Shown: positions 4,470-26,872, counted from the stretch's first letter. The stretch: DNA of 64,000 nucleotides from Cyanidioschyzon merolae (GCA_000091205.1 AP006497.2), one strand, 5' to 3'. Numbers and translations: made by a program. Notes: generated from the letters alone by a model not told the origin.

Positions 4470-4700
4470 AGTGACTTGGCTTTCAAACGGAATCGATGCA
4501 TTTTTGTGAAAAGTTCAACGATCTTTTGGTATGCGCTTGTGTACAAAACGTCGAGAGACGACACCCGGTTTTCTACGTGGATGCTGTGGCGAGCATACCT
4601 CGTCCCACGAGTTACCTCGAAACGCAAAGCTCGAGCTCTTGAAGCATGCTTGATTTGCACATGGAAGCCGTAGTAAAACGGGAAGCATGGATGCTTCCGC
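4470..4700 (+). repeat. dispersed repeat family 1, copy A (~230 bp, conserved core CTTTCAAACGGAATCGAT)
   Basis: Shares an exact 18-mer CTTTCAAACGGAATCGAT (4480-4497) with copies at 25990 (same orientation) and 21206-21223 (inverted). Downstream blocks align at ~65-70%: ..catgaaaagtttcacgaac.. and cctcgaaacgcaaagctcgag...gcatgcttgatttgc. Confidence 0.6.
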
Positions 4701-5634
4701 GTATATGCTGAATCATGGTTTCCATTAGTTTGCGCTCCGTTACATGAACGCGTCACGAATCATATCGATTCCGATGATGTAACGTGTTCCCGCAGCAGAG
4801 TGGCAGACCAGCCACTCGGAAAATATCGCCGAGAATCCCTCAGCACGAGCACCTGGGCATGGAGTGTCGATGCAGTGCGTCTAGAAGGAAAAAAGTTCGA
4901 ATAAAAATCTCACACCAGCAACAGAGTGAACAAATCAGTGTTCCACTCTCATCTGAAACGGGTAGAGAGTCAGCGCCATTCTTGCGAAAGCGCTTTCGTG
5001 AATGTGGTCGCGTACCCGCAAACCTGCAAGCATACGTAAAACCTGCATACTTCCCGGGCGGATACTCAATATGTGAATACATGGCTTCGCTGGCCGTTGC
5101 TCCTTCAGATGCACACTCTAGCTGGTGACCGGACCACTAGTTCGGAGACTGAAGTCGCCCGCAAGCGGTACGCTCGGCGTGCCATCTGCTCGGAAACTCA
5201 CTGGAGCCAGCACCCACACAGGCTAAAGCAAAGCTGGTCTTTGTTCGTACGTCGTCCGCAGCGCCATTCACCAGGCACAGTTGTCGATACTCGATGGATC
5301 CATGCAAGACACCCGCGTGCATCGCATGAACGTACCATGATCACGAAGCAACTTCTGGTCTTGGATCCATGGTACACACGAGGTCCGGAAGCGCATAGCG
5401 GGCGCTTCTCTACCTGCCGATCGTAGTCGTGCACACGGGTAGACTGCGGTCAGGTTTAACGATCCCTAAGGATATGCAATAAACTCGTTCGAGCGCATCG
5501 TGCGGAGCTTTTCCCCCCGTGACCTACCGGAAGACTAGTCTAATAAAGCATGCTCTTCCAGTCACATCGATAGATTAGAATTCCATAGGGCACGAGCGGT
5601 CGTTCTTCGCCAGCACATTGCCCACTCTGCGGCG

Positions 5635-6153
5635 CAAGGTGCTGCCTCGTGCGACACGCTGAACCGATCCTCCGTTGATCAGCGTACACAGGGACGTTCC
5701 TCAGTGGATGCTTGTACACCTCTGCTTCGAAGAACGCAGACACCCAAAGCTTCGTGACTCGTTTCAAGGTGCTGCCTCGTGCGACACGCTGAACCGATCC
5801 TCCGTTGATCAGCGTACACAGGGACGTTCCTCAGTGGATGCTTGTAGACCTCTGCTTAGAAGAAAGCAGACACTCAAAGCTTCGTGACTCGTTTCAAGGT
5901 GCTGCCTCGTGCGACACGCTGAACCGATCCTCCGTTGATCAGCGTACACAGGGACGTTCCTCAGTGGATGCTTGTAGACCTCTGCTTAGAAGAAAGCAGA
6001 CACTCAAAGCTTCGTGACTCGTTTCAAGGTGCTGCCTCGTGCGACACGCTGAACCGATCCTCCGTTGATCAGCGTACACAGGGACGTTCCTCAGTGGATG
6101 CTTGTACACCTCTGCTTCGAAGAACGCAGACACCCAAAGCTTCGTGACTCGTT
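5635..6153. repeat. minisatellite: 130-bp unit x4 tandem array immediately upstream of SelO gene
   Basis: Unit ggtgctgcctcgtgcgacacgctgaaccgatcc... starts at 5638, 5768, 5898 and 6028. Copies 1 and 4 share variant ...tgtacacctctgcttcgaagaacgcagacaccc..., while copies 2 and 3 share ...tgtagacctctgcttagaagaaagcagacactc... (A-B-B-A). The track's four staggered identical 70-aa ORFs (MISVHRDVPQWMLV...) are artefacts of this array. Confidence 0.95.
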
Positions 6154-6300
6154 TCTTTGCAACGTAGAGGCGTTCGACGGAAAGCAACTCACAGCTCAGG
6201 AAACGTTGCCCCGCCGCAAGCAGCGCGGCGCAACGGCATCCTCAGACGCAAGGCGTCGGGACTCGGAAACCAAAAATGTTGTTGGTTCGAGAACTCGACT

Positions 6301-8316
6301 ATGACTTTTTGGGCCTGGATTGCGCTCACGGGACACAGCGGAATTCATTCGAGGTCGAGTCTGAGAACGCTCCCACGAGAGACAGCGCGAGTACGTAGGG
6401 TGCTGTGGCGGTTGTCGCCTGAACACCCACATCTCGGGCGCAGTGTGTTTACACCATCCCGTACCACGGCGCGTCCGTCAGAAGCGCGTGAGCGACTACC
6501 GCGTAGCGCTTTGCCACACCTCCGCTCAAACTACTCCTTACCTGAAACAGCGATGCTCGGGAGCGGTACTGGACACGGAAGTTCTGATGGAAAGGGAGCA
6601 CCACTACCAGCAACGACGACGACGACGACACACCAGAGTGACGAGCGCCTGCTCACACTCGACGAACTAGTGCTGAGTGCGGGGTTCGCCAGTCGTCTAC
6701 CCGCGGACCCGGAAACTGCAAACTACGTCCGCGTAGTGCGCGGTGCGGCACTTTCGTTTGTGCACCCGTCACCGACCTGGACGGAGCCGGTGCTTGCTGT
6801 CTGGTCAGACAGGTGTGCGCGTGCTTGTCTTGACCTCGAGGTGAGGCCCTCAGAGCGAGACTATGCAGCACGTGTGTTCAGTGGCCTCGCGATGTTGCCC
6901 GGATCGCGACCCTATGCGCAGCGCTACGGCGGACACCAGTTTGGCGTCTGGGCAGGTCAGCTTGGCGACGGTCGTGTCATTGTGTTGGGTGAGTACCAGA
7001 ATCGATGCGGCGAGACCTGGACCTTGCAGCTGAAAGGCGCAGGCAAGACGCCGTTTGCTCGTTTCGCTGACGGGCGCGCTGTCTTGCGCAGCAGCGTGCG
7101 AGAGTTTCTCGCCAGTGAAGCGCTACATGCGCTGGGCATCCCTACCAGTCGTGCGTTGTCCCTTGTGGTCACTGGTGACAAAGTCGTGCGGGACATGTTC
7201 TACGACGGCAATCCACGCGAGGAGCCTGGCGCTGTCGTTTGCCGTCTAGCTCCTTCATGGGTGCGGTTCGGAACGTTTGAATTGGCAACGGACTGGAATG
7301 AGCTGGAGCTTCTTCGACAGCTTGCGGACGATACGATTGTACACCACTACCCGGCATTGCTGGCACATGAGCGTTCTCACGGCAAGCGCACATCCGCAGA
7401 CTCGAGCCGCAGCGCAAGAAATGAAGAGTCCCAGAACCCAATGCCGTATCGAGCGCTTTTACTCCAAGTCGCTGAACGAACAGCTGCGCTAGTTGCCGGC
7501 TGGCAAAGCGTCGGTTTCGTACACGGAGTCTTGAACACCGACAATATGAGTATTCTGGGGATCACCATAGACTATGGTCCGTTCGGCTTCCTGGACGCTT
7601 ACATGCCCGAGTACACGCCGAATACCACAGATCTTCCGGGTCGACGCTATTGTTATGCGTTACAGCCGACCATCTGTTTGTGGAATCTGCTTCAACTAGT
7701 GCGTGCATTCGAGCCGCTCACTGGTACTAATCTCTCGGAGGAAGTGAGTCAGACCTACGAGACCAAGTTTCGCGAAGAGATGTCCGCACGCCTGCGAGCC
7801 AAACTCGGTTTCCAAACCTGGAACTCGGATGCAGATAATGGACTTGTGCGGGACCTGTATGAGCTCATGCGTCAGGATCGAGCGGATTTTACACGCACCT
7901 GGCGAGCGCTGTCCTGGTTAGAGCCCGTTGCTTGTCTACAGAAAAGCGACGCCTCGCTCGAGCCGCTGCTTCGCGTACTCCCAGAGCCGGTTCGAAAGAA
8001 TCCGGACCGACTTGAAGCTTGGCGACTTTGGGTGCAACGTTACGCAGAGCGTACGCTGGCCGAAGACAACTTTGATGGGACTGCACGGCGCAAGCAAATG
8101 CAAGCCGCGTCTCCCAAGTACATTCTACGGAATTACATGGCTCAGGTGGCAATTGAAAAGGCGGAAAATGAACAGGATTTTTCGGAAATCGAGCGACTGC
8201 TCAAGTTACTCGAACATCCGTACGCAGAACAGCCCGAAATGGAGGCACTCTACGATCGGGAGCCACCGACATGGTCCCAGCGCCTTGGAGTGTGCATGAA
8301 CAGCTGCTCTTCCTAA
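6301..8316 (+). CDS. SELENOO: protein adenylyltransferase SelO (UPF0061/YdiU family), Cys-containing form
   Basis: Strong SelO hallmarks: FASRLPADPE, YQNRCGETWTLQLKGAGKTPFARFADGRAVLRSSVREFLASEALHALGIPTSRALSLVVTG, GVLNTDNMSILGITIDYGPFGFLD. Track ORF starts at TTG 6157 inside the tandem array; the first in-frame ATG is 6301 (MTFWAW..., Arg/Ser-rich N-terminus plausible as mitochondrial presequence), and an alternative ATG lies at ~6553 (MLGSGTG). C-terminus ...CMNSCSS-stop places Cys at the antepenultimate position, where vertebrate SelO has Sec; the codon is TGC and the stop is TAA. Confidence 0.85.
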   Translation: MTFWAWIALTGHSGIHSRSSLRTLPRETARVRRVLWRLSPEHPHLGRSVFTPSRTTARPSEARERLPRSALPHLRSNYSLPETAMLGSGTGHGSSDGKGAPLPATTTTTTHQSDERLLTLDELVLSAGFASRLPADPETANYVRVVRGAALSFVHPSPTWTEPVLAVWSDRCARACLDLEVRPSERDYAARVFSGLAMLPGSRPYAQRYGGHQFGVWAGQLGDGRVIVLGEYQNRCGETWTLQLKGAGKTPFARFADGRAVLRSSVREFLASEALHALGIPTSRALSLVVTGDKVVRDMFYDGNPREEPGAVVCRLAPSWVRFGTFELATDWNELELLRQLADDTIVHHYPALLAHERSHGKRTSADSSRSARNEESQNPMPYRALLLQVAERTAALVAGWQSVGFVHGVLNTDNMSILGITIDYGPFGFLDAYMPEYTPNTTDLPGRRYCYALQPTICLWNLLQLVRAFEPLTGTNLSEEVSQTYETKFREEMSARLRAKLGFQTWNSDADNGLVRDLYELMRQDRADFTRTWRALSWLEPVACLQKSDASLEPLLRVLPEPVRKNPDRLEAWRLWVQRYAERTLAEDNFDGTARRKQMQAASPKYILRNYMAQVAIEKAENEQDFSEIERLLKLLEHPYAEQPEMEALYDREPPTWSQRLGVCMNSCSS

Positions 8317-9427
8317 CAAATTAGGCGAAAAGGTGAGGTGTCTGGTTCGTGTACCCGATCGCATGGATAGACATCCACGGATGCCTATTGAAGCACCTGT
8401 AGGAATACTCCTACGAATACCTGCGCGGATACGGCTATGGACACAGGCATGTTCATGGGTGGCAATGGTTGAAGTGCACGATTCGTGCTGGAAACTGCCT
8501 GCAACCTGTCACGTTCACAGTGTGTTGTTGCAACTTGTTTCGCATGCGTCGCCAATGCCGCGTCCCGAGTTTTCTTTTTGTAAAGAACCGCTTTCACCGA
8601 ATACGGTTGGATGCGAATCTTGATGCTCTGGTGGATCATACGCCAGAGACTAGTGGGACCGCTGCAACTGTATATATTCTCAGGACGGCGCTGTTCGTCG
8701 ATCGCGTTTCCAGACACCACACCCGAGCAGTCCATATGATCAGTTCGCATCTATGGGTTCGCCCCGGAGACGCAACGCGGGAGACGTCTTTGCACCCGAT
8801 CCCATGGGTGAATCTGCATCCACCGAGAAAACCGAGTTGAGCGCTTACCTCGTACCGTTTAGGCGATCGCTTTTGAGATCCGATGCTAGCGGGGGTCGGG
8901 GTATCCGCTGACCTTTCTACGACTGGATGCCAGCGCTATGCAGCCTGAACCTCGTCGGAGCTGCTGCTTCGATCGCCATATGAAAACGTGAGATTCGATT
9001 CGTGCAAAGCCAACAAAGAGTCCATATGCAGAATACAAACTTTTCCTTCAGCAAAAGCAGCCTCTTGCAAGTAAGGATCTACGCGAGGTTTGTGGTGTAG
9101 GACCCGTACCTCATTCGCGCTGGGGCGTCTAGAGTGCTGGGGGTCTCCGAGGTGCCCCCGCTGCACGCTCCTGCCCTGCCGCCTGCGCTAAACAACACCT
9201 TTCATATACTGGGCACTCGCGCTCTCTCTACAGGTCCTTCGCTTCATTCATCAGCAAATATCCGCCTGAACGTTTGCCGGCACTGCAACACCAGACTTGG
9301 ATAACTGCATTCAATGAAAGAGTGACGCTCTTTTTCCAACGTAGAGCGCCACCAACCTACAACCGCGTCCTAACCTGCAGCTGTTGCAAGACGCCCTAAC
9401 GAGAGCATCTTCTGTACCGAACAATTT

Positions 9428-9850
9428 CCATACCAGTGCTGCTCCCTAAGCGCTATCCTAACCCAGCGCACAGTGTCTTGAACGGTTTTGTGGTACGCAC
9501 TCGGAAACAGTTGGCGTACCAGTGCTGCTCCCTAAGCGCTACCCTAACCCAGCGCACAGTGTCGTTAACGGTTTTGTGGTACGCACTCGGAAACAGTTGG
9601 CGTACCAGTACTGCTCCCTAAGCGCTACCCTAACCCAGCGCACAGTGTCGTTAACGGTTTTGTGGTACGCACTCGGAAACAGTTGGCGTACCAGTACTGC
9701 TCCCTAAGCGCTACCCTAACCCAGCGCACAGTGTCGTTAACGGTTTTGTGGTACGTACTCGGAAACAGTTGGCGTACCAGTACTGCTCCCTAAGCGCTAT
9801 CCTAACCCAGCGCACAGTGTTGTTAACGGTTTTGTGGTACGTACTCGGAA
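9428..9850. repeat. minisatellite: 86-bp unit x ~4.9 tandem array in 5' flank of peptidase gene
   Basis: Unit ccagtgctgctccctaagcgctaccctaacccagcgcacagtgtcgttaacggttttgtggtacgcactcggaaacagttggcgta repeats at 9433, 9519, 9605, 9691 and 9777. Track ORFs 9436.. and 9522.. (identical 61 aa, GTG starts) and the 5' end of ORF 9748.. are generated by it. Confidence 0.95.
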
Positions 9851-9942
9851 ACGCTCCAGTGGCCGCGTCAGCGTTCGCTGTCCACCTGTGTGCCAGCCCG
9901 TTCAACGAGTGCAGTTCTCTTTTTGAAGATAGAGGCTTCTTT

Positions 9943-11946
9943 ATGCTTCTATTCCAGTCTACACTGGTTCGAGTTTATGTTGTCCGGAGCCCGCCTCGCA
10001 ACCGACAACTGTGTCTCCGCGCTGACTCGAGTCAAGGACGACACCTCCTGGGAGCACGACCTGCACAGCAGACGACGACGACGACAACAACCACTACAAC
10101 TACAACTGCTGCGGCGTCGAGACCGATAACCAAGCTAACAGTATTGCGAGTACAGCAGCGTTTCTGGGAGCGCCATGGAAGCGCTCCAGCGCTGGCTTGT
10201 TCGCAGAGCCCGTTGCAGCCGCACCTGGGCGTCGGTGCAGAGGCTTGCACCCGGCAACGAATCTCAGACCTCAAGCCGAGCGTCGGTGAGCGCCTCCATT
10301 CAGCCTATTATACACGATTGCGGCAAGCTGTGGCGGTAGTTAGAAACTGGGTTTGTGTTGCAAGCGCGCTTCTCTTTGTCTACCTGAGTACCAGCGACCA
10401 GGTGGCCCTGGCGGCTGCCTCACTCGCCAATGGCATGCCTCAAGACCGTCTGGCTCTGGCAACGAGTACGCCCGTTCCAGATCGCTACCGAATTCTTTGG
10501 GAGCAGGCACTGGACATCATCACGAACCTTCACTACCAACCCGGTCAACATATCCATGCAGCCTCGTTAACCATGCCTTCGCACTTGCCGCCTACGCGTG
10601 CGTCCACGATCCCATGGGGATGCTCTCTGGGAACACGTGCCTCGACCTACGATGCCATTCGGATCCGACTCAGTGAATTGAATGATCCCTACTCACGTTT
10701 CCTGGAGCCGGATGAATTTGAGGCGGAACTGAATCCTTACCGGCGAGCTCGGAAGCTCAGCGGGGTCGGCATCATACCGGAGCGCAGTCCAAAAGGCCAC
10801 GGCACGCTGCGCGTTATAGCCGTTATTCCCGAGTCACCGGCTGAGGAGGCCGGAATCAACCCCGGCGATGAACTCGTTATGATTGACGATATTGTCGTCG
10901 AGCCTTCACCTTTGAACCCGATTCCTGTGACCCCCGATGAAGCGTTGGCGTTGCTGCGCGGCCCAGCGGGTACGCGGGTTCGTCTCACTGTGCGACAAAC
11001 GACAAACTCGTTGTCGTACGCTGATGCATCGCTGCAAGTAGCGTCAGCGTCCACAGCGCCGACCTCTATGATGCGTACATATACATTAACGCGGAGACCG
11101 CTTCTGGTAGCTCCGGCTGTCTACGGCCTTGTCGCCGCGGAGCCCACTTTCGGTTACATTCGCCTCCATACCTTCAACGCCGAAGCGACACGTATCGTCT
11201 TCGAGGCTCTGAACGCATTCAAGAATTCTAGCGATCGTTCGGCAGCGGCTGGTGTTATCCTAGACCTGCGCAACTGCCGAGGTGGCGTCTTCCAGGAAGC
11301 ACTGGTGATTGCTTCGATGTTCATCGCAAACCCCGATGCCGTACTCGTCTACACCGTCGACAGTCGGGGTATCGAGCGCGCACACCGGGTGCGTGACCAG
11401 TGGAACGGTTGGCCTGAAGCTCCTGCTGCCGCTGCTCGTACTCCTCGTACTCCTCCTGAGACGCTCGGGAGCGCGGCGTCGGCCCGGCATCCGCTGTACA
11501 ATGGCCCACTGGTGGTGCTCGTCAATGGTGCCTCAGCTTCCAGTAGCGAAGTGCTTGCGATAGCCTTGCGCGATCACGGACGAGCAGTGCTGTTGGGCAT
11601 GCCAACTTTTGGGAAAGCCCGCATCCAACACTACTTCCCGCTTTTGGACGGCTCGGCGATCGCGCTCACTGTCGGGGAGTTTCTCGGCCCGCAGCACGAA
11701 CGCCTCGCGGACCACGTCGGCTTAGTGCCGCAGGTCTCCTGCAACGCTGCACCCCGGAACTTTGCGCTCCTAGAGAGACACACGCCACCAGATGCCTGCA
11801 TCGCAGAGGCAGCTCAGCTGCTAAGCGAAGAACCCACGGGGTCATCGGCTACAGAGCCGGTGCCGGTCGGTGGCTCCGTGCGGTCTGCGTTCACATCCCG
11901 AAGCAGGTCCACTGAAACGACACTGTTGCCTCGGATCCAAACCTGA
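9943..11946 (+). CDS. C-terminal processing peptidase (S41 family, CtpA/tail-specific protease-like) with PDZ domain
   Basis: DPYSRFLEPDEFEA motif, PDZ (GVGIIPERSPKGHGTLRVIAVIPESPAEEAGINPGDELVMIDDIVV) and S41 catalytic region (VILDLRNCRGGVFQEALVIASMFI ... GMPTFGKARIQHYF). Track start 9748 is GTG inside the tandem repeat. The first in-frame ATG is 9943 (MLLFQ...); the next is ~10432, after a hydrophobic segment (WVCVASALLFVYLSTS), so the start is uncertain. ACN-repeat encodes T12. Confidence 0.8.
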   Translation: MLLFQSTLVRVYVVRSPPRNRQLCLRADSSQGRHLLGARPAQQTTTTTTTTTTTTAAASRPITKLTVLRVQQRFWERHGSAPALACSQSPLQPHLGVGAEACTRQRISDLKPSVGERLHSAYYTRLRQAVAVVRNWVCVASALLFVYLSTSDQVALAAASLANGMPQDRLALATSTPVPDRYRILWEQALDIITNLHYQPGQHIHAASLTMPSHLPPTRASTIPWGCSLGTRASTYDAIRIRLSELNDPYSRFLEPDEFEAELNPYRRARKLSGVGIIPERSPKGHGTLRVIAVIPESPAEEAGINPGDELVMIDDIVVEPSPLNPIPVTPDEALALLRGPAGTRVRLTVRQTTNSLSYADASLQVASASTAPTSMMRTYTLTRRPLLVAPAVYGLVAAEPTFGYIRLHTFNAEATRIVFEALNAFKNSSDRSAAAGVILDLRNCRGGVFQEALVIASMFIANPDAVLVYTVDSRGIERAHRVRDQWNGWPEAPAAAARTPRTPPETLGSAASARHPLYNGPLVVLVNGASASSSEVLAIALRDHGRAVLLGMPTFGKARIQHYFPLLDGSAIALTVGEFLGPQHERLADHVGLVPQVSCNAAPRNFALLERHTPPDACIAEAAQLLSEEPTGSSATEPVPVGGSVRSAFTSRSRSTETTLLPRIQT

Positions 11947-12116
11947 CCGAGTTGCGCACCCGTTCGGCAGTCTAGAGCATCCGACAGCACCAGGTTCGCG
12001 TAGTGATCAAAACCGCTGAGTTTTCCGCGCACGCACCTGTTCGCGTTCAGGTACACTTGGACGGAATGAAACAGCAACGCTTCGAGTTCCGCAGTATCGA
12101 CCTCGTCTTTTGCCAT
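11814..12116 (-). CDS. Sm-like protein (SmG/LSm7-like)
   Basis: 100-aa ORF with a genuine ATG (cat at 12114-12116). Sm1 motif VRGKLSGFDHYANLVLSDALD and Sm2 motif LGQVWIRGNSVVSVDLL; compare SmG ..GILRGFDPFMNLVIDE..IGMVVIRGNSI. The C-terminal 28 codons overlap the last ~44 codons of the convergent peptidase gene (11814-11946). Confidence 0.55.
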   Translation of the reverse strand: MAKDEVDTAELEALLFHSVQVYLNANRCVRGKLSGFDHYANLVLSDALDCRTGAQLGQVWIRGNSVVSVDLLRDVNADRTEPPTGTGSVADDPVGSSLSS

Positions 12117-13362
12117 AAACCAAGCTGATCAACAACCAACACGACGCTGGTCAAATGCTTGGACGCACGCGGGTTTCCCACAGCCTGCCAAGACGCCGTC
12201 GCAGGGTACCGGCAAACGCACTTGTGTGTATGTTGCTGAGTTGCGCGACGTTTCTGTGCATATCCGAAGCAGGAGCAGCAGTAGTTCCAGCCCAGGAAGC
12301 CTTTCGTTTCGACCTTTCAGGAACGTGTAGTGCGCACGTCGTTTTGACGAAAAGTCACCTTCCCTGCGATAACCGACGACTCAACCTGGACTGCAGGGTA
12401 AAGTCGTTGCAGCGCGTTCGGGTGTACGCGCGAGCTCCACGAGTCGCCAGTGAGTGCCTCGGCATACCTCGACCTCGACGGTGTTCGTTGAACCCAGAAC
12501 ACGAATTCGGGAGCTTGGTTGCCTCAAGGCGAAAGCGAGCGACAGGCACTTCTCGGAGTCTGTGGGTGTTTCTGGTGCCTATCCCAGTCTGTGGCCGGAG
12601 TGTGTCCGTTCGTCCAGTTCAAGCGGAGGTGTACCGAGTGTCTTGAGCAGCGTGCGGACGTCTGGGTGTCACGGTGGCTCTCTGTGGTGCGTCCTGCCTT
12701 CACGGGCGTGATTCAGACTGCACCCGCGAGCATGCGCTACTCACTCGTGCTGCAAACGCCCGCCACCTGCGCAGTGTTGCAGGCGAGAGACAGCGGAACC
12801 TACCGCTATGCGACTTGGCGTTAGGTGCGTAGGTATATGCGTTTATGCGACGGAAGCAACGTTGTTGTCGAGTACCTGCCCGCGGGTTATCTGGGACCGT
12901 GTTGAGATTCACGTTTACGCATTCTCTATATATGCTGCCTTTAGATGAAGCTGCCGCCTAGCCTAGCCAAGCGCATCTCTTCCTAGGCACCAGAACCCGC
13001 TCTGGTCCAAGATATGCACGCGTATCCATTCCCGGCTTTTTGGTGACGCTCAGGGAGTATTCCTTGTCCGGCTGGGTATGCCACTACTTGATCAGCGCTT
13101 TCAAAAGCAGATGCCAGCCCCGCGCACCAGCGCGTCCAGCGTTTACATTACAGGCTTGCACACCGCCGCTACCCGCTGGTATCATACGCCGGTTTGTCTT
13201 CATCGTGAAGCTCTTCGTTCCACGACTTGCTCTACCAGAGTCTCCGATGCCGCGGTAGCATGTCTGGGAATGCTCTACCTCCGGCAAACGCACACACACT
13301 CACTCCTTCACAACAACAACAACAACAACCAATGGGAATCGAACAAGGCACAGATGCACGCC

Positions 13363-16674: not shown

Positions 16675-17861
16675 CTTGGAGGTGGTACTATTCAATGCTT
16701 CAGCACGCGCCCAGTCAAGTTCTTGGTGCTGGTCGAGCGTCTGTCTCTGGAGTTACCGCTTGTGTGAGGCGTTACGGGTAGCCTGCGGTGGCAACTTGAT
16801 CGAACCGTGCGCTCTCTGAGCAAAGCCTCCACTGGATACCTTCGGGCAACGCGAGCTGAGCGAAATGCAGCCACAAACTATCGTCTACGAACTTTGAAGC
16901 GACTCTGAGATAGGACCTAGCGACGCAGTTCACCCTGAAAAGTCGATGTTCGGTTGCGAGCAGGCAGAGCAGCTTGTTCAGTCTGATACGTCAGCAACTG
17001 CCTCTCTGGAATACACCTTTTATTGGCAGCGCTCCCTGATTATAAACACTGTTTGCAATCACCTCTCCAGATTTATGGGATGCACTCGTCACACTGGTTC
17101 TGTGGAGTCGCGTTCAGGCCGGTGCGCCAACAAGTGCCTCCCTGGACCAAACCGGTTATTGAGGGTGCTCGCCGATGAAACACACCGTTCGCAGTCGCTT
17201 TTCCAGATCTATAAGATGCACTTGTCAAACCTGTTCCCTCGAGTCGCGTTTCGCGCTGTGGCACTCCCTCGAGGAGGCAAGTGGTTGCGTAGGACACGAG
17301 GCCGCCTGCCGGTCGTTGCAACGTCTGGTACCCCGAGCGCGATACGATGCGTCTCGCGTGGCTCTGGAGCCGTGTGGAGCACCCGCCACCCAGCGACTGT
17401 GAGGCCGAAAGCCCAGCGATGCAGATCATCAGGAGTGCCGCTCAACCGGGATCATCGAACTTCATCTGATTCCGCTTCAGCTCAGTTAACTCCAATGAAT
17501 TCCAGTTTATCTCTTCTGACCTCATTCCATCTCAAATGATCCCACTCGTTGGGATAGCAAGGACGCTTGGTAATTTTGCAGGGTACGCATCAGGAATATA
17601 AGAGCTATCATGAATACTCATCACGAGAGGCACTTGGCGCTGGGAGAGTCCCACGAACGAATGAAAGGATCACCGGAGGCAAGTATAGGTCATGGCGAGT
17701 GGTCAGCAGAACGCTCGGGAGAGATCGTGAGGCGTCATCACGACTGCCTGCCCGGAAACCGATACGCGTCGTGCAGTTGGGAATCCCTGTTTGCTCTACG
17801 CGATGCAACGTCATGGTTATCCATCGAGGGTGGCGCTCGGGCTGGTCTACTGGAGCGCGTG

Positions 17862-17884
17862 CACGCACGCACACACACACACAC
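17862..17884. repeat. (CA)n microsatellite
   Basis: gcacgcacacacacacacacac in the divergent intergenic region. Confidence 0.9.
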
Positions 17885-18206
17885 TTCGCAGTTTACCGCC
17901 TGATGATCATCGCCCAGGTACACCGTCAACCATCTACGTAGCGTGCACTTGCATCCGATTTCTTTCGTTTCCATACCCCATGACGCCTTTTCGAATGCAT
18001 TCTGCATCGACAACGACGAGCACACGAGTGACTGCAGCTGACGTTTCTCGCTTCCTATAACCCGAAACGCTCGGCAACGACGCATCTCTCGAGAGCATCG
18101 CCCGCAGCCTCGGAGCATCGCAGAGGACCTGATTGCATGCAACGATGCTAGTCCATAAACCGATGGAAAAGAATTGACCCTGTGTATGGGAGCATCTGCA
18201 GCTTGC

Positions 18207-18437
18207 AGCTCATATCCATCACAAGCATCTGTACGAACACCACCGGGTTGACTGCCACACGAAGCTCTCGGGGGTGCGCGGGCAGCTCATATCCATCACA
18301 AGCATCTGTACGAACACCACCGGGTTGACTGCCACACGAAGCTCTCGGGGGTGCGCGGGCAGCTCATATCCATCACAAGCATCTGTACGAACACCACCGG
18401 GTTGACTGCCACACGAAGCGCTCGGGGGTGCGCGGGC
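18207..18437. repeat. minisatellite: 77-bp unit x3, ~200 bp upstream of ALDH start
   Basis: Unit agctcatatccatcacaagcatctgtacgaacaccaccgggttgactgccacacgaagctctcgggggtgcgcgggc at 18207, 18284 and 18361. Confidence 0.95.
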
Positions 18438-18640
18438 GCTCGCGCTTTGCGTCCCGATCCGGCTGTGTGAAGCGAGGCGCTCGCGGGCGATACGCACGAC
18501 TGCCGAGTGTATCTCGACGGCTCGGGTGAGCGCGTGGAGCACTGTCGACCGCAGGTGACCATCGGGTGCAGCTTAGACCTGGTCAAAGTGTACGACGCAT
18601 ATACTCCATTACGCGTAGCGGTTGACGCTGACGGAATAAG

Positions 18641-20245
18641 ATGCTGACGTCAGCAGCTGACGACTTGTCGTCGGGATATCGGGAGGTAAGGGCGGAGCTG
18701 GGCGAAGCCTTTCGGAGTGGGGCAACACGCTCGCTTCGTTGGCGTGCAGCGCAGCTGGAAGCCCTGAAGCAGGCGCTAGTGGAACAGGAGCGCGCAATCA
18801 TCGCGGCATTAGCTGATGATCTCGGGAAGAGTGCTGAAGAGAGTCAGCTTACCGAGCTACAACCCGCACTCCAGGAACTAGCGTTGGCGCTGGGGAACCT
18901 GAAGCTCTGGGCTGGGCCCCGCACGGTAGAACCCTGCTTAGCACCCAAGTATCTGGCGCCGTGGTTCTGGTTGCAACGTGTTTGGCGCGCGGTGCTTCCT
19001 CGAGTACTGGGCGGTGGCAACCCGCCGGTGGCAAGTTACGGCGGCGTAGCACTGGCGACGATACTGGAGCGTCGCTGGGTCGTTCCTGAACCACTGGGCG
19101 TGGTGCTGATCATCACAGCCTGGAACTATCCTCTACTGCTTGCGATTTGGCATATGACAAGTGCTATCGCCGCTGGGAACTGTGTCGTCTTGAAACCAAG
19201 TGAACGTGCTCCTGCAACAGCAAAACTGCTGGCAGAGCTGGTGCGCACCTATCTCGATGCTCGCTGCATCCGAGTCGTGCTGGGCGATGCCAGCACTGTT
19301 CGGCGTCTGCTTCATCTGGATACCGAGTGTCCGGCGGATGTTGCGTTCCGCGTTTGGGCACAGCAGCGCCCTTTTGATGCGGTGCATTTCACGGGCGGCT
19401 GGAGGATTGGGCGTGAAATCGCACGCGCTTGTGCGGCCTACCTGATACCGTGCACGCTCGAACTGGGCGGTAAGAATCCGCTTGTGGTGGACTGTGCATC
19501 GCTGTCCGAGCGAGACTTGGCTCGGGTTGCCCGAACGACCGCATGGGCCAAGTTACTGAACGTGGGTCAGACGTGCATCGCCCCGGATTATGTGGTTCTA
19601 TGCGGTGCAGACCGGGCACAGGAGGCGTTCTTCATAGAAGAGATGTGGAAATCGATTGAAGCATTCTACGGGAGGCCAGTGGAAAACAGCACGACCTTCC
19701 CACGGATCGTGAGCAAGGCACATACCGCCCGTCTGGCGGACCTGCTCCAACAAAGCCGTGGTGAGGTTGTGTTCGGTGGAACCCACCGAGAGAATGACTG
19801 CTTTTTCACGCCGACCATTGTGCGCAATGTGACTCTGGATGATGCGCTGATGGCGGAGGAGATTTTCGGGCCGATACTGGTTGTTCTGCAGCCGTGTGCT
19901 GGTACCGAACAAGCGCTCGAGGTGATCGGGAGTCTACCATCTCCGCTGGTAGTCTATCTAATGTCTCGTGACGCTGCTGTGGTGCAGCGTTTTGAACGGG
20001 CATCCACCTCTGGATCGCTTGTCGTGAATGATCTGCTGGGTCAGGTAATCTCGCCGGGTCTTCCGTTTGGCGGGGTCGGCGCTTCTGGATACGGCAAGTC
20101 CAAAGGTCAAGCGGGGTTCGATGCGTTCTCGAACCTCAAGAGTGTCCTCTGCAAACCGATATGGATAGAGCGAATAGCGAGTGATCGCTACCATCCACTA
20201 ACCGCTACCAAGATCAGTCGTTTTCGTCGCTTAATCGCGCTCTGA
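18641..20245 (+). CDS. aldehyde dehydrogenase, ALDH3 family (fatty-aldehyde-dehydrogenase-like)
   Basis: ATG start. ALDH3-type motifs: LIITAWNYPLLLAIWHMTSAIAAGNCVVLKPSE, TLELGGKNP, catalytic Cys in LLNVGQTCIAPDYVVL (compare ALDH3A1 MNSGQTCVAPDYIL), EIFGPILVV. 534 aa. Confidence 0.9.
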   Translation: MLTSAADDLSSGYREVRAELGEAFRSGATRSLRWRAAQLEALKQALVEQERAIIAALADDLGKSAEESQLTELQPALQELALALGNLKLWAGPRTVEPCLAPKYLAPWFWLQRVWRAVLPRVLGGGNPPVASYGGVALATILERRWVVPEPLGVVLIITAWNYPLLLAIWHMTSAIAAGNCVVLKPSERAPATAKLLAELVRTYLDARCIRVVLGDASTVRRLLHLDTECPADVAFRVWAQQRPFDAVHFTGGWRIGREIARACAAYLIPCTLELGGKNPLVVDCASLSERDLARVARTTAWAKLLNVGQTCIAPDYVVLCGADRAQEAFFIEEMWKSIEAFYGRPVENSTTFPRIVSKAHTARLADLLQQSRGEVVFGGTHRENDCFFTPTIVRNVTLDDALMAEEIFGPILVVLQPCAGTEQALEVIGSLPSPLVVYLMSRDAAVVQRFERASTSGSLVVNDLLGQVISPGLPFGGVGASGYGKSKGQAGFDAFSNLKSVLCKPIWIERIASDRYHPLTATKISRFRRLIAL

Positions 20246-21019
20246 GACTCGAGCGCGGACTCGCGGTAAACACGCGATGTGCTCAGGATACGTCCGAGAG
20301 CGCCCGAATGTTTTCGTCGGTGGACAATATCGGGGACCTTGGTGGATGGAAACGGGTGCATTGACAAATCGAGCTACACGTATCGCCGCGGCATCGATTC
20401 TGAATCGTTTGGGCTGCACTGCGGCCATCGGGTCGTTACGTTGTGCGAAATACCGGTGTGTATGGCGTCGATGACGGACTACCGCGTCGCTTAGGGCGTA
20501 TTCGAAGACGGTCTGTTCTGATGCGCCACTGGCATCCGGTCTTGCGGTGTCGTTCCAGCGGGAGCACTTCGAGCGCCATCTAGCGTTTCACGCGAGCTGC
20601 ACCGCATGCTTCCTCATCCTATCGTCCATGCAGCGTTTACGCATTCTTCCGAAACTGTTGCTGCTGCGCTGCTGAATGCCATTTTCGTGAGACGACGCTG
20701 TGGGTATCGCGCACCGCTCCACCCGTGTCGGATGAAAATGGAAGCCTGAACTGCTGGCGCCTTGCCTGCTTATCGGTTTTTTCCCGATTGCACATAGATC
20801 TACAACCTTGACGTTCGATATGCAGCAATCAGGGTATACGATTGCATTTGTAGTTTGAGGATTCTCGGTCGTTTTTTTTCGGAGACGCTCCTTCGACGCT
20901 TTGCCGCTGCCGTTGGTGACGTCGTCGCCATCACGATGATTCTCGACGCGTTCGAACGAGACTTTTTAAATTCAATGACGTCTTTGTCGAATTCATATGT
21001 GCAAGCCTCGACTTGTCTC

Positions 21020-21235
21020 GTTTTCTCGCGCATGCGATAATCAAATCAAACATGCTATCAGTTTTCGATTCTTCTGTTCCTGTGCAACTCATGGGTGCAG
21101 CAATTCGCGCCGATGAACTGACGACGAAGAAAAAGTCGACGCTGTCCCATGGTCACTTGTTCACAAGCTCTTGCCAACGGTTCACTGAAGTGTTCATGTC
21201 AAAAAATCGATTCCGTTTGAAAGAAAAATCCTCTT
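21020..21235 (-). repeat. dispersed repeat family 1, copy B (inverted)
   Basis: Reverse complement of 21206-21223 is CTTTCAAACGGAATCGAT. Flanks align with copies A and C (…catgaacacttcagtgaacc…, aattgctgcacccatgagttgc…, gcatgtttgatttga…). Confidence 0.6.
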
Positions 21236-21525
21236 CTCAATGTAACCATTGACGGAGCTGCGTTCAACATCCATAGGATATCTCTAACGGGATTCGCAGG
21301 TAAAGAATCCGGTCCTTCGGACTTGTATGTAAGCTGGTGCAGAACATGAGTCATCGCGGTGATCGCTTGCAGTCGAGTGTGCATCATCGCTTTTGAGCGA
21401 AGGGTGCGCCAACGGATCGAAAGTCCTCGACGTGTTCCCCAGCCGTGAATTGCAGTTCGGTACTAGATTCATCACGATTCACATCGTGCGCCATGCATGC
21501 TTTACCGAATGGCATAGCGTTCTGT

Positions 21526-22467
21526 TTACACATGCAACCTGAAGAGCATGCGCAGAGCGCGCTCGCCCAGGAGCAGCACGTCATTGCAGGAGACGGCTCT
21601 GGGCATGGAAACGGAGCAAGGCATGGTAGGGAGCCCTCTGGATCCGTCAAGGGCATGTAACGAGCGATGAAGCGAGCCTTGACGTGCTGCAGGACGGCGC
21701 TCGAAAGATGAAGAGGTGTGTTGGATACATAAGTGCACTTGACAGCATGCACATGTTACCGCTTTGAAGCGCGCACCGGGCTCTACACAAAAGGAAACGA
21801 AAACGACAAGCGAAGCGTAACGCAACTTTCGTCTGTGTATAAAATGCGCCGTTGACAGCAACCGGAATCGGGGAAAGCGGAGCTTGAACGCCTCCAGCAA
21901 CATGCTTCGACTGCTGACAACGGAGCTTGAGGAAAACCCGAAACCAATGTATTCAGACCTTGATCTATGAGAGCACGAAAAGGAAGCACTCACAGCACAG
22001 TCCCGCAACATCTGGTTTTGATGACAGCCGCAAGAGCCCTCGACTTGCGTGCATACGCCCGAGATCGCCGCGTGCACCTCTTCCAAGTTCACGCTGACAC
22101 AGGCGTCGTCTAGGTGCTCGAGGACGGCATTGCTCTGCCCGCAAGCCGCATGCCCATGCAGTGCATACAAGCTCTTCCAAATCGTCACCTGTACGTAAAA
22201 ACAATACCAGCATTTCTCTATGGAGATTACGGTCACTATCGTTTCCGAGGCAAGTGCGTTGTCTCCATCTGCAGGAACGCTGGGGGCGCTCCCTTCTGGC
22301 TGCTCGATCGCTCGCCTCGCCCGGTGCGGGAAACTTATACCGGCCGCTTTGGCAACCAGCGGCGCGAGCGCAGCCCAACGTCGCCGCTGGCGTTGCGCTT
22401 GCTGCTGGTCAGGCCTGGAACTACTTCCAGGCAGCGGCACGAACCTCCGGGCGCCTGCAGAAGACAC
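21526..22467 (-). CDS. long ORF of uncertain coding status (313 codons), divergent from FA2H
   Basis: No domain similarity and several overlapping ORFs on the + strand; length alone is somewhat beyond typical random ORFs for this GC content. Low confidence. Confidence 0.15.
   Translation of the reverse strand: MSSAGARRFVPLPGSSSRPDQQQAQRQRRRWAALAPLVAKAAGISFPHRARRAIEQPEGSAPSVPADGDNALASETIVTVISIEKCWYCFYVQVTIWKSLYALHGHAACGQSNAVLEHLDDACVSVNLEEVHAAISGVCTQVEGSCGCHQNQMLRDCAVSASFSCSHRSRSEYIGFGFSSSSVVSSRSMLLEAFKLRFPRFRLLSTAHFIHRRKLRYASLVVFVSFCVEPGARFKAVTCACCQVHLCIQHTSSSFERRPAARQGSLHRSLHALDGSRGLPTMPCSVSMPRAVSCNDVLLLGERALRMLFRLHV
21815..21930. repeat. dispersed repeat family 2, copy X (~115 bp)
   Basis: ~75% identity to 63740-63850: shared gcttcgactgctgacaac(g/a)g core plus upstream gtgt..a.atg/ttacg.cgttgacagc...gg(g)aaagc blocks. 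Confidence 0.5.
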
Positions 22468-22798
22468 GCATCACTATCGTTCGTCTTCGTAAGTCTTTTA
22501 TTGGATATAAAGGCATCAGATCAGGCGTGCGCAGGTGATTACTGTACATAACGGCCATATGTGATGCTGGTGCGCGCACGCGTTTTTCCAGCAGCGCTCC
22601 TTCGCCGCCGTTTGACGATACCGGCCGCTGACGGGCGCGACACGTGTCCACAAGCGCTCAGGGAGCGCGTGTCCATACGACCTGGCGGTGCCGATTTACA
22701 GGGCGCGCGTTCATGCTGCGGCAGGTGAGAGCGCTTTAGAACAATCCTCGTGTGCTGCGTCCGAGGTCCTGCGTTCGAGTCGTGGACAGCGTGCGTCA

Positions 22799-23797
22799 AT
22801 GACAGAGTGCTACACACTAACACGGCGCGTAGTCCGTGCACACAACCATGAAAACGACGCCTGGGTGATCGTTCGTGGTGGTGTCTATGACGTGACGGGG
22901 TTCTTGCGGTACCACCCGGGCGGGCGGGACGTCCTCTTGAAGCGTTTGGGCGAGGACGTCACCAGTGTTATGAACGGCGAGCTCAAAGGTGGTCACGAGC
23001 ACTCCAGTGCGGCGTATAAAATTCTGCAGCAGTACTACGTAGGCCCGCTGGCTGACGCGGACGCTTCTCCCGCAGAGGCAGCCGCCCTAGACGGCACGCT
23101 GGACGAGCACGGTAGACCGCTGGTCGACTTTAGTAAGCCGCTTCTGGACCAGGTTGGTAAGCTTGGGGATAAGTATCACCGCTGGGTGCATTCTTTTCCG
23201 ACCAGCGACCATCATGTGGCCCTTTTCGCGAACCCGACGCTCGAGTCACTGACAAAGTGTCCCTGGTACGTGCCGCTAGTGTTCTGGATTCCGATCTTTG
23301 TCTGCGGGCTGTGGTTTGTGTTTGCGCGCCTCGGTTGCTCGTTTGTTCGAGATTTCCTACCGTTCACGACGTTTGGCTATATATTTTGGATGTTCTTCGA
23401 ATATCTGTTACATCGATATGTATTTCACGTGCGGACCGGGACGTACTGGTCGAATATCTTTCATTTTCTTATTCATGGACATCACCACCTGGCGCCGATG
23501 GATTATGATCGACTCGTGTTTCCACCGATTCCCGCAGCGCTCGTCTCGATGCCGGTATGGCTGACTGCACCTCGAGTGTTTGGTCTCGTGCGCGGACTGT
23601 GCTTCCTTTTTGGATTCGGTGTTGGGTACCTTCAGTACGACATGACACACTTTCTGGTGCATTATGGAACGCTACGTACGGGGTTCTTAGCCGCTCAGAA
23701 ACGGCGGCACATGATACACCATTTCAAAGCACCAGGGGCGAATTTTGGTATCAGTGTTCCCGTGCTGGACATTGTGTTCGGGACATTGCACCGGTAA
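22799..23797 (+). CDS. FA2H: fatty acid 2-hydroxylase (FA2H/Scs7-like) with N-terminal cytochrome b5 domain
   Basis: Cytochrome b5 heme-binding region (HNHENDAWVIVRGGVYDVTGFLRYHPGG) followed by a multi-TM fatty-acid-hydroxylase domain with His boxes (HRYVFHV, HGHHHLAP, HMIHHF). Track start 22688 is GTG; the first ATG (MTECYTL) is at 22799, immediately before the b5 domain. Confidence 0.85.
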   Translation: MTECYTLTRRVVRAHNHENDAWVIVRGGVYDVTGFLRYHPGGRDVLLKRLGEDVTSVMNGELKGGHEHSSAAYKILQQYYVGPLADADASPAEAAALDGTLDEHGRPLVDFSKPLLDQVGKLGDKYHRWVHSFPTSDHHVALFANPTLESLTKCPWYVPLVFWIPIFVCGLWFVFARLGCSFVRDFLPFTTFGYIFWMFFEYLLHRYVFHVRTGTYWSNIFHFLIHGHHHLAPMDYDRLVFPPIPAALVSMPVWLTAPRVFGLVRGLCFLFGFGVGYLQYDMTHFLVHYGTLRTGFLAAQKRRHMIHHFKAPGANFGISVPVLDIVFGTLHR

Positions 23798-25984
23798 CAA
23801 CCACTGGTTTTCGCACACGCCTGCATGGACGAGCATGCCAACGAGAAGTGCGGTATTTCTGGACGGCGCGTCGAGCGCAGCGTGATGGATACCCACGGGC
23901 GGCTTGCGATGCTCGTATGGAGTCAAGCGTGCCTTGAAAGAGAGGTGTTTTTCTGGTTTGCTTGGTAACATCCATACGAAAACAAATTCATGATACAAAC
24001 GCACCTGAGTGTTAGATAGCTGATGAGCTGCTAGCAGACTGCTTTTGTATTCTTGCGAGCTGCGTTCCGCGCGGGCCCGTGCACCTGCACAGTAATTAGC
24101 CTCTCCTATGGGCGTGTGGTCCCCGCTCCACGTGCGACATACAGCCTGCGCGCTTTGGGCATTGCGGTTGCGGGTATCAGTTTGCTTGGTGGTGCCTGTC
24201 CGGAGACTTGCTTCTCGGGTATGGTGAGGTAACGCAGGTTTTCACCTGCTTCTGCCGCCGCTGTCGCACACCAAGGATGGACGCTACAATCACATCTTTG
24301 TAAAAGATTTGCTGTGCCCGATCACCGCGGACCTCGTTGACATGGTGCTTTGGAGTAATGACAGAGGAATCCACGCTGTTGTGGACGCCGGGTTCTGCAG
24401 CCCCTCCGAGCGCCTGCTGTTGGCCGGTCGCTGGAACGAACGCGCAGAAGCCGCTAGCCTTGGCGGGCCCATAGTTGGACAGCTTCTTGTCAGTCGATTC
24501 GTCGCTAAAGATGCCAGCATTCTCGAGTACGCGAGAACCTCGCATCGATATCCATGGGCGTTTATTACCGGCGACGATTCTGCTGAACAGGGCTGGTGGG
24601 ACTTGTTCCATGTCCCAGTATCGTACCACCAAACAGTTGAATTTCTCCTCGTACTGCTGTTCATGTGCAGATACAGCTCATTGACTCGGATGATCCAAGC
24701 AGATGTGCACCCGCGCGAGCACCTCGTGGAGTGGAAGAATAGGGGAAACCCCCAGCACATGTGCTCGCGACCCTATGTAAACCCGAGGGATGGGTGCAGC
24801 GATCGACGCTCTTCACCAGCGCCGAACGCTCCCTTGAACCTAGGATAAATACACAGCGGTGTTCAGAAGAGACTGGATCTGGGTTCTAGTGATTGATAGC
24901 GTCTCCGCACGCGTTCCATGCCAGCTCGTTTCCTCGGTGCGGTACGTGGAGAGAAGATCGCCACGATCGCTTGCAGTGGTGGTATCGGCGGCGCGCCTGC
25001 GGATAGACTCGGGTGAGGTCGCTGCGAAAAGCTCGAAAAGTCGCGCGTTGCTACCCGGCCCGTTGCCGCAATCCCGTACCGTGGTGTGAGACGTCGTCTA
25101 GACTCGTGTCAGAATCAAATGGAAGAGGTCCTTTTTTCGCGAAAACTAAGGTGTGCACGCTAAAATTTTGGTCTCTTTCCATTGTCATGAACAGAAGTCT
25201 TGTTGGCTTTTTCTGCAACTGCTTGCTGTTCCCCTCTCTGCTCCGTGGCTCTGAATACACCGCGATCTGCTCTGCCTTCAGCTCCGTTGTACGTTGTCGA
25301 AGGATATTGCTCGAAACGATCATGTCCCGATATCGCCATGTTCAGCTGTTGTCGACGCTTTACACACATAGAGAAATGTTACGATCCTCGCATTGCTTTC
25401 CATTTTCAATTTTGGTTGTATAGGGCACCGGTATGCGCTTCGCGGCGGTCGCATTTGGCCGTGGCCAGGTGCTCCCGGATGTTCAAGGATCCTCCTACTC
25501 CGCCTCCGAGCGCAGCCCCGTAACGCGTGAACTCTTGCATCAGCGCTCGGTACTTGTCACGGAGAGGAAAAGAAGGCCTCCGGCGATTTGCCCCTCAAGT
25601 GCGGCGCCCGGTGCCATAAACCACGTTCATGAGCGTATCCTAGTCGAACTCTTCGACGGGTACTCTGTCCGGTGCACTTGCAAGCGCACGTTATTCGCTT
25701 CGATGGAGCATTTGCGCATCGCGATCTTGTCGCTGGCGAAACAAACACCCGCAGGAAAATCCAGACATGAGCAGGACCCGAGCTGTTTCGATCGTTCAAT
25801 GCTCGCTTGATGCAAAGCGGTGTCGCACGCGCAGCTGGAAGCAGCTTCCGTGATGACTGGAGTCCGAGTTCATAATGCATTCCCATGAAAGCAGAACAGA
25901 TAAAAGCTTCTGGAGGCATGTCCCGTCAGCGATATTCTGCTGCTTCTAAGTTCGGTTTCGTAGAAAGCCAAAAAGACAGGAAGA

Positions 25985-26230
25985 AATATCTTTCAAACGG
26001 AATCGATGATTGAGCATGAAAAGTTTCACGAACATGCGGCATGAGCTTGAGAACAGGTAGTCAAGACCGATGTAGAGGTTTTTTGCTTTGCAAGCCCAGC
26101 GACCCCAATTGCTGCGCCCACAAACTGCCTCGAAACAGACAGGTCGAATACTTGGAAGATTCATGATTCGAGCATGCTCCACACAACGAAAGGAGAAGAG
26201 CGGATTCTCGCACATTTGAACTGGATCATG
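25985..26230 (+). repeat. dispersed repeat family 1, copy C
   Basis: CTTTCAAACGGAATCGAT at 25990-26007. Downstream gcatgaaaagtttcacgaaca, caattgctgcgcccacaaactgcctcgaaacagacaggtcga... align with copies A and B. Confidence 0.6.
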
Positions 26231-26491
26231 ATTTCTTTGATTTTACGAACCCTAGTTCTCGGATATCGCGACTCTTGTTGGTTCTGGTGACGTTCCGTTC
26301 TCCTGTACCAATGCATCGAAACAGGCACTCCGCGAACACGACAGAGAATACTAGGGAACTACGTATCAGTGCATAGGTCCTCATCATTACATGATGGAAG
26401 TCCAGGATGTCCTTCTATAAAGCTATGAAAACATTCTACTTGCAACAAAGAACACCCTGCTCCGTGTTCCATTTTAAACTGGCACAGTAGG

Positions 26492-26728: not shown

Positions 26729-26768
26729 AACAGCGTCGTCGCTGCCCTGCGCGATGCTGCACCAAAGA

Positions 26769-26789
26769 GCGCGCGCGCGCGCGCGCGCG
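26769..26789. other. alternating (GC)10 tract (Z-DNA-prone) ~85 bp upstream of start codon
   Basis: gcgcgcgcgcgcgcgcgcgcg between the 79-bp array and ATG 26873. Confidence 0.9.
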
Positions 26790-26872
26790 GATCGCCTTAC
26801 TACTGCGCGCTCGCTTTTACCTAGACCCAAGGCGAAACTAGTGAGGTGTTCGCTGGGAGGCGAGATCGCCTT

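Follow-up and report, generated by a model that had tools for sequence, protein, structure and literature searches.

Tc1/mariner-type transposons that carry a Fanzor1 gene have been described as PUl-1, PUl-2 and Mariner-2_PGv (Bao & Jurka 2013, PMC3627910). In Cyanidioschyzon merolae, CMe-1A/TE-N2_CMe has been described with a 3,169-bp consensus and about 150 copies that are about 80% identical to it, in which no terminal inverted repeats (TIRs) were found (PMC3627910). This genome is cited as nearly free of transposons, with a count of 26 class I and 8 class II elements that amount to 0.7% of its sequence (Nozaki et al., PMC1955436). Here we describe a dispersed repeat family in a 64-kb stretch of C. 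merolae DNA (64,000 nucleotides of AP006497.2; hereafter, the window). The family is a heavily decayed relative of the Fanzor1-carrying DDE transposons and their deletion derivatives, and its copies are very probably the relics, decaying neutrally, of a non-autonomous family of DNA transposons with TIRs. Six copies, four of them full-length (1.3-1.4 kb) and two truncated, occupy 6.9 kb, so that a single decayed family makes up 10.8% of the window, with at least two more Fanzor-related relics beside it, as against the genome-wide count of 0.7%. Considered alongside CMe-1A, the family suggests that a large part of the unexplained intergenic DNA of C. merolae may be the remains of RNA-guided-nuclease transposons, which bears on annotation and on promoter and untranslated-region studies in C. 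merolae, as well as on Fanzor history in the red algae.

PUl-1, PUl-2 and Mariner-2_PGv are bounded by TIRs and encode a DDE transposase followed by Fanzor1, and the same pairing is found in the relatives of the window family. Unlike these elements, the window copies are internally deleted, fused remnants, all of them dead, and the TA duplication that is typical of Tc1/mariner is not confirmed in them. With CMe-1A the family shares its genome, its protein superfamily and a similar state of decay (window copies are 68-75% identical to their own consensus), but it differs in having clear TIRs and a transposase-derived half. Identity with CMe-1A was considered and rejected: blastn of the CMe-1A consensus against the copies or their consensus gave no match at E <= 0.01, and the protein similarity is weak (about 25% collinear identity to the CMe-1 protein over about 150 C-terminal residues, E = 0.31). 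Judged by these sequence comparisons, the window family is distinct from CMe-1A. We found no published description of it in the literature, Repbase and Dfam not having been compared.

Comparison with the structurally characterised Fanzor1 proteins, namely SpuFz1 (8gkh and entries beginning 9ce), PpFz (9cf0) and GtFz (9cer), gives a similar picture. The intact relatives of the family share with them the fold over the whole length (template modelling score, TM, about 0.6), the RuvC D-E-D residues and the C4 zinc ribbon, whereas the window copies have only the RuvC-II/zinc-ribbon/RuvC-III tail, without RuvC-I, WED and REC. Finally, the family resembles Ds of Ac and the MITEs (miniature transposable elements with inverted repeats), such as Stowaway from Tc1/mariner, in its uniform internal deletion, retained TIRs, lack of a complete transposase and many copies. 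The initial annotation of the window had proposed a non-autonomous element like a MITE or a short interspersed nuclear element (SINE). The copies are indeed dispersed, non-autonomous and equipped with TIRs, but a unit of 1.3-1.4 kb is too big for either class; MITEs are high-copy, TIR-flanked elements that are short (less than about 800 bp) and non-coding, whereas the window unit is a decayed protein-coding fusion of remnants from two genes.

The initial annotation had described three copies of a repeat of about 230 bp, 65-70% identical and sharing an invariant 18-mer. This 18-mer, CTTTCAAACGGAATCGAT, is exact at 4480-4497 (plus strand), 21206-21223 (minus strand) and 25990-26007 (plus strand), as claimed, with none expected by chance in 100 shuffles; no further match with up to two mismatches is present in the window (0 expected in 100 shuffles). 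It is also correct that all three sites are intergenic and lie in strongly diverged copies, although the tracts described as gene-free hold gene-derived sequence, the repeat itself being a pseudogene. The extent, number and similarity of the copies had to be revised. When 2.3 kb around each 18-mer was aligned, the similarity proved to extend over about 1.3 kb, and the homologous unit is 1,306-1,378 bp from TIR core to TIR core. The pairwise identities are 52-60% in the multiple alignment, or 56-64% in local BLAST alignments. In addition to the three copies with the 18-mer (A, B and C), the window contains a full-length copy D and truncated copies E and F, and the 18-mer is not invariant in the family: copy D reads ATCGATCTCGCTCGAACG at this site, and other copies have 1-7 changes. 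The additional copies were found by a sensitive self-comparison and an nhmmer profile; self-BLAST at +2/-3 scoring did not detect the repeats at all. All matches of the family fragment proteins in the window lie within copies A-F. The features are listed below.

Copy A, 3653-4958, sense strand minus: full-length relic, 1,306 bp core to core (nhmmer, 3618-5062; end alignments; tblastn of family proteins, 3897-4836)
Copy A 3' TIR, 3653-3680: degenerate, TGCCAGTGATGAACGCGTACCATGGAAC (end alignments)
Copy A 18-mer, 4480-4497, sense strand minus: I-D-S-V-stop-K; the first DDE aspartate motif is here decayed to I-Y
Copy A 5' TIR core, 4941-4958: sense TTTCAGATGAGAGTGGAA, 3 mismatches to TGTCAGATGAAAATGGAA (end alignments)
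Copy B, 20726-22099, sense strand plus: full-length relic, 1,374 bp (nhmmer; TIR coordinates; tblastn, 20836-22047)
Copy B TIRs: 5' core at 20726-20743 (1 mismatch) and 3' TIR at 22080-22099
Copy B 18-mer, 21206-21223, sense strand plus
Copy B first DDE aspartate codon, 21251-21253: GAC, within the motif T-I-D-G-A-A-F
Copy C, 25107-26484, sense strand minus: full-length relic, 1,378 bp (nhmmer; end alignments; tblastn, 25102-26355)
Copy C TIR arms, 25106-25124 and 26467-26485: 19 nt, 79% complementary (independent repeat finder)
Copy C 18-mer, 25990-26007, sense strand minus
Copy D, 54679-56047, sense strand minus: full-length relic, 1,369 bp (self-comparison; TIR coordinates; tblastn, 54741-55881)
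Copy D site homologous to the 18-mer, 55550-55567: CGA (Arg) codon retained
Copy F, 36219-36899, sense strand minus: 5'-truncated relic with the Fanzor-derived 3' part and the 3' TIR (36219-36238), without the 18-mer region
Copy E, 63209-64000, sense strand plus: 5'-truncated relic, Fanzor-derived part; the 3' end lies beyond the window

The ends of the element were defined by aligning nine 5' ends and eleven 3' ends. The homology stops sharply on both sides, and the inverted motif (ACYCG)TGTCAGAWKAAAATGGAA is found at both, giving TIRs of about 19 bp at the element ends. At several ends a TA dinucleotide is found 7-8 nt beyond the TGTCAG core, in copy O38b on both sides, with decay blurring any target-site duplication. 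The initial annotation had recommended searching for TIRs and for copies elsewhere, on the grounds that without either the 18-mer would be better explained as a coincidental or locally duplicated segment. Both were found, the further copies including two more loci with the exact 18-mer in metagenome strains that are nearly identical to C. merolae. The 18-mer itself had been suggested to be a TIR or a target site; however, it sits about 460 nt inside the element (444-477 nt in copies A-C), in a transposase-derived coding remnant.

The coding origin of the repeat becomes apparent only when the copies are combined. Their majority consensus contains a 290-codon open frame, on the strand opposite to that quoted in the initial annotation, with the motifs ...GYGTG...DIWEHLTTAKCHRCE...CMKC...RNRDLNAA.NI that constitute the TnpB/Fanzor signature. 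In particular, the consensus contains the Fanzor1 C-terminal signature [TS][TS]-x-x-C4 zinc ribbon-x(5,50)-RD, as defined by Bao & Jurka 2013 (PMC3627910), in the form EHLTTAKCHRCE...CMKC...RNRDLNAAINI, while single copies are degraded. A reconstruction from nine copies scores 27.4 bits against PF07282, above the gathering cut-off of 26.3. Against DDE_3 it reaches 25.1 bits (E = 1.8e-5), short of the 28.6 cut-off, and covers positions 3-94 of the 146 in this profile. It contains the first two aspartate motifs of the transposase (VAIDET and MDNxxxHK), and the third acidic residue is deleted. Of the 606 profile positions, the Fanzor segment covers 434-602 and starts with the helix that precedes GYGTG. 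The element lacks the RuvC-I aspartate (DPG motif), WED and REC; the DPG region is present in the intact relatives described below (D413 of P0210). The layout of the element is therefore a 5' TIR, a helix-turn-helix (HTH) domain, DDE_3 up to the second aspartate motif, the Fanzor1 RuvC-II/zinc-ribbon/RuvC-III part, about 50 nt following the stop codon, and a 3' TIR; the 5' two-thirds of this unit are not Fanzor sequence. The window copies are Fanzor1-derived and not Fanzor1 genes, and a nuclease function is impossible.

This layout is matched by protein-level alignments to two intact proteins. The reconstruction aligns end to end with P0245 (30% identity, E = 2e-49), beginning at the same Met-Tyr and reaching the C-terminus, and its residues 1-235 align with residues 1-231 of P0348 (32% identity, E = 4e-32). 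These alignments also bear on the reading frame that includes HRFRLK, which the initial annotation had noted as shared by the copies. We considered it as the ancestral frame owing to its resemblance to FKIRDK of Fanzor proteins, but rejected it: P0245 and P0348 place this region in the transposase, where the ancestral open reading frame (ORF) runs on the opposite strand in the I-D-S-V-R-K frame, so that the HRFRLK frame is accidental. Similarly, VAIDET was rejected as a RuvC-I or TDG motif of Fanzor, since it is the first DDE_3 aspartate motif. Solo long terminal repeats and paralogous untranslated regions are ruled out by the coding consensus and the TIRs. The trypanosomatid SIDER/DIRE retroposons, which were suggested by the GC content and the long intergenic regions, are ruled out by genes on both strands and by cyanidialean proteins. 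Searches of the PDB with single sequences gave no useful match.

A profile built from the fragment proteins that match the consensus was used to search for relatives. It matched 435 proteins at E <= 1e-3, mostly fragments of 70-300 amino acids, which we interpret as what is left of ORFs in further decayed copies. Among the best 150 matches, about a dozen are proteins of 500-800 amino acids. Three of these, P0210, P0222 and P0230, exceed the gathering cut-off of PF07282, and a profile of the long relatives matches solved Fanzor1 chains: 9cf0 (Parasitella PpFz) at 1.3e-9, 8gkh (Spizellomyces SpuFz) at 1.5e-3 and 9cer (Guillardia GtFz) at 0.023. When the AlphaFold2 model of P0210 (pLDDT 83.6) was compared by Foldseek, the best matches were SpuFz structures over the whole length (E about 1e-17, TM 0.58-0.66); for example, SpuFz 9cey gave E = 1.6e-17 and TM 0.60/0.66. 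Note that this comparison concerns an intact homolog, not the relics. Both the profile matches and the predicted structure indicate that the long relatives are Fanzor1.

The transposase part also has intact counterparts. P0348 is a complete DDE_3 transposase of 321 amino acids. Its Logan contig and that of the Fanzor1 protein P0230 have the same length, 3,344 bp; the two proteins are probably on the same contig and belong to one autonomous element. In contig L036, a DDE_3 C-terminus lies just upstream of a related Fanzor gene. The pairing of P0348 with P0230 and the gene order in L036 point to a composite of transposase and Fanzor1 as the autonomous parent. P0245 (449 amino acids; L039:516-1865, Logan SRR33769809) is an intact fusion of HTH, DDE_3 (positions 3-93 of 146, 28.9 bits) and a Fanzor tail (TNB). 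It is thus the same fusion as in the window family, but it is only 30% identical to the consensus and its junction differs by 17 residues, which could mean either independent deletions at nearly one place or a maintained architecture. More relics of the family, full-length or nearly so, are found at L037:9294-10676, L038:755-2110 and 5310-6702, L040:3928-5239, L042:3037-4313 and L043:4403-5751. These contigs have 50-55% GC and come from other samples, and their relics are as diverged from the window copies as the window copies are from one another.

The copies have decayed neutrally after a burst of insertions. Codon positions 1, 2 and 3 are equally conserved relative to the consensus: 0.72/0.71/0.71 (Fanzor part), 0.75/0.72/0.71 (DDE part) and 0.73/0.71/0.70 (HTH part). 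Within the 168 codons of the Fanzor segment, each of copies A-D contains 2-6 in-register stops together with 2-9 frameshifting indels. Identity is 52-60% for every pair and 68-75% between single copies and the consensus, corresponding to a star-like phylogeny. The longest ORFs in the copies encode 106-165 amino acids in inconsistent frames.

The insertions are specific to the C. merolae lineage. Four ORFs of the window are identical to the C. merolae 10D proteins BAM81667, BAM81673 (CMO351C), BAM81674 and BAM81675, and from the prefix of the tag CMO351C the window is probably part of chromosome 15. Its large ORFs are ordinary eukaryotic genes on both strands. Hot-spring metagenome contigs that are 98.2-99.1% identical to the window have the same copies. 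At the syntenic loci of Cyanidiococcus yangmingshanensis (L001, GCA_026122185.1) and of a relative in a JGI metagenome (about 77-78% protein identity; L002/L003), the gene order is kept over nine genes, from a TPP enzyme to a DEAD/DSHCT helicase, and the family profile gives no match there (nhmmer, E <= 10). The Cyanidiococcus spacers are consistently shorter; the two that were compared are 1,345 and 1,089 bp, as against 2,443 and 3,049 bp in the window. Because the syntenic loci have shorter spacers without a profile match, the repeat is lineage-specific inserted DNA rather than conserved non-coding sequence.

The following order of events would account for this structure. The progenitor would have been a composite Tc1/IS630-type element of about 3.3 kb, encoding a DDE_3 transposase of about 320 amino acids and then a Fanzor1 protein of about 700 amino acids. 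An internal deletion would have taken the last third of the transposase, including its third catalytic acidic residue, together with the first two-thirds of Fanzor1 (WED, REC and RuvC-I), leaving a unit of about 1.4 kb with the TIRs shared with its parent. The deleted unit itself appears to have been amplified, since all full-length copies have the same deleted structure; presumably, it was mobilised in trans by the transposase of a full-length relative acting on the shared TIRs. The unit would then have multiplied in the C. merolae lineage, each insert decaying without selection.

The position of the 18-mer can be understood within this framework. On the sense strand it reads ATC GAT TCC GTT TGA AAG, that is, I-D-S-V-stop-K, in frame with VAIDET eight codons downstream; the spacing is exactly 24 nt in the alignment of five copies with the exact 18-mer. 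It aligns with a poorly conserved linker of the transposases P0245 and P0348, and its TGA aligns with an Arg residue in the related Fanzor-family alignment. The corresponding codon is CGA in copies D, N38a, O38b, M37 and L042, and it has changed from CGA to TGA or TGG at the CpG in 7 of 12 copies. Owing to the in-frame stop inside the word, protein constraint cannot explain its preservation. Readings of the 18-mer as a Myb/MSA, heat-shock element, E2F or STAT motif were examined, and none fits; AACGG/CCGTT is not enriched beyond its frequency in the window.

Since coding constraint offers no explanation, the 18-mer might be a real cis-acting site, binding a host factor or the HTH domain of the element, that is under selection in a subset of relics and was retained in copies A, B and C on chromosome 15. 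The ancestral word, A-TCGA-TTCCGT-T[C/T]GA-AAG with an ancestral C, contains two TCGA palindromes that are ten bases, or one helical turn, apart. Over nine full-length copies it is the most conserved 18-nt window (0.914, compared with 0.864 for the next best and a mean of 0.715), with sharp boundaries and unconserved flanks. The invariant run of 18 columns in A, B and C exceeds the longest run in all of 20,000 shuffles (mean 6.7, maximum 15; analytic P about 1e-5). It is exact at two further loci in near-identical strains, making five distinct loci in metagenomes that sample the known loci up to about four-fold, and three of these five are found in a stretch of 22 kb. However, A, B and C were chosen because they share the run, and copies G and K were retrieved with the exact word. 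In the seven copies that were found independently of the 18-mer, there are 25 mismatches at 126 sites (19.8%) against a background of 28.5%, which is only mildly lower (binomial P = 0.017, for a block picked post hoc); the "functional core" of the initial annotation thus receives weak support, and the apparent invariance is mostly ascertainment. About 2-6 exact survivors would be expected for an assumed family size of roughly 150-450 copies. Moreover, the orientation of the element to the neighbouring genes differs between A/C and B, the distances to the next gene start differ as well (about 1.7, 1.5 and 0.8 kb), and the 18-mer has no Rfam match. We therefore consider a selected cis-acting site unlikely. 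The exact 18-mer in A, B and C is best explained by survivorship and ascertainment, added to mildly slower evolution of this block; the word is neither a TIR nor a target site, has no demonstrated regulatory role and presumably lacks a function.

Two further explanations concern the copies as a whole. That they are a living, fast-evolving gene family might be argued from the nearly complete ORF of the consensus, which has the same Met-Tyr start as P0245 and P0348, and from P0245 being an intact fusion ORF in another organism; the copies might also be genes for long non-coding RNAs. Every window copy, however, is interrupted by several in-frame stops and frameshifts, the three codon positions are equally conserved, even the longest ORFs are short and in inconsistent frames, and by our reading the numbering of the C. 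merolae protein accessions continues without a gap over these intergenic regions. In the 3' part, no stable or conserved RNA structure was seen: the consensus 3' region, considered for a structure like an omega-RNA, folds no better than shuffles (z = +0.6 and +0.9), and no Rfam family matches. Functional copies are thus highly improbable. Even less credit can be given to local segmental duplication or to fragments of retroposons (SINE, SIDER-like or long interspersed nuclear elements), despite the occurrence of six copies within 64 kb and the absence of the 5' part on the sense strand from E and F, as in 5'-truncated retrocopies. The flanking genes and DNA are unrelated between copies, and the homology ends sharply at the same motifs, which are inverted repeats; the content is a DDE transposase and Fanzor, with no reverse transcriptase, and no poly(A) tail is seen in the full-length or 3'-end alignments. 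In addition, copies occur at unrelated loci in other contigs, and divergence is about equal for every pair, whereas recent local duplicates would differ in this respect. There remain several observations that fit poorly with transposon relics decaying without selection. That three exact 18-mers out of five cluster in 22 kb is hard to attribute to chance (rough P 5e-5 to 4e-4); A, B and C are overall no closer to one another than other pairs are, yet they share a run that has a chance probability of about 1e-5; and 10 of 12 copies have an intact ATCGAT. The two halves of the consensus are joined with a frameshift, and two more frame changes are needed; the amplifying master may have had an intact fusion ORF. 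The fusion of HTH, partial DDE and Fanzor tail, which is intact in P0245 and nearly restored in the consensus, could be a maintained protein architecture rather than a deletion accident. Finally, the placement in Tc1/mariner rather than in another DDE superfamily is suggested by the DDE_3/IS630-type domain and contig L036.

Some minor features were noted in and around the copies. Copy B contains an inverted repeat (21846-21860 and 21912-21926; 15 nt, 87% complementary, 51 nt apart), whose arms lie in the sequence coding for the zinc ribbon and in ACTGCTGACAACGGAGCT, the family block that ranks second in conservation and encodes LLTTEL; in the consensus, 10 of 13 positions pair, as counted by eye. 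The ACTGCTGACAACGGAGCT block has the hexamer TCCGTT/AACGGA in common with the 18-mer, in complement. An ORF of 313 amino acids (21526-22467, minus strand) runs antisense over copy B; it has no family match and is probably spurious. Another of 380 amino acids (1993-3135, minus strand) adjoins copy A and has neither a family match nor a Pfam domain.

The window also contains other repeats. An internally deleted CMe-1A copy lies at 40881-41417 (minus strand); it matches CMe-1A positions 788-969 at 71% and 2833-3084 at 64%, and CMe-1 residues 674-721 at 48%. A third Fanzor1-like remnant, at 50988-51557 (plus strand), is 33% identical to CMe-1 residues 508-699 (E = 1e-19), and belongs neither to CMe-1A at the nucleotide level nor to the window family. 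It is adjoined by a second diverged dispersed repeat, which occupies two further long intergenic regions at 31263-32305 and, inverted, at 50250-48948 (about 59-61% identity); at 49805-49923, a short segment matches CMe-1A in its 5' part (TE-N2_CMe region). Tandem arrays are present at 5635-6155 (unit of 130 bp), 9431-9852 (86 bp), 18205-18441 (77 bp), 26492-26730 (79 bp) and 30312-30510 (84 bp), with 2.4-4.9 copies of mutually unrelated units and 97-99% matches. Most of them are located just upstream of, or overlap, the starts of gene-sized ORFs, and the 79-bp array starts right outside the 5' TIR of copy C; a (GC)n run (26770-26790) lies between this array and the next gene. At 36047-36109, 110 nt outside the 3' end of copy F, there is a perfect (CAG)21 microsatellite.

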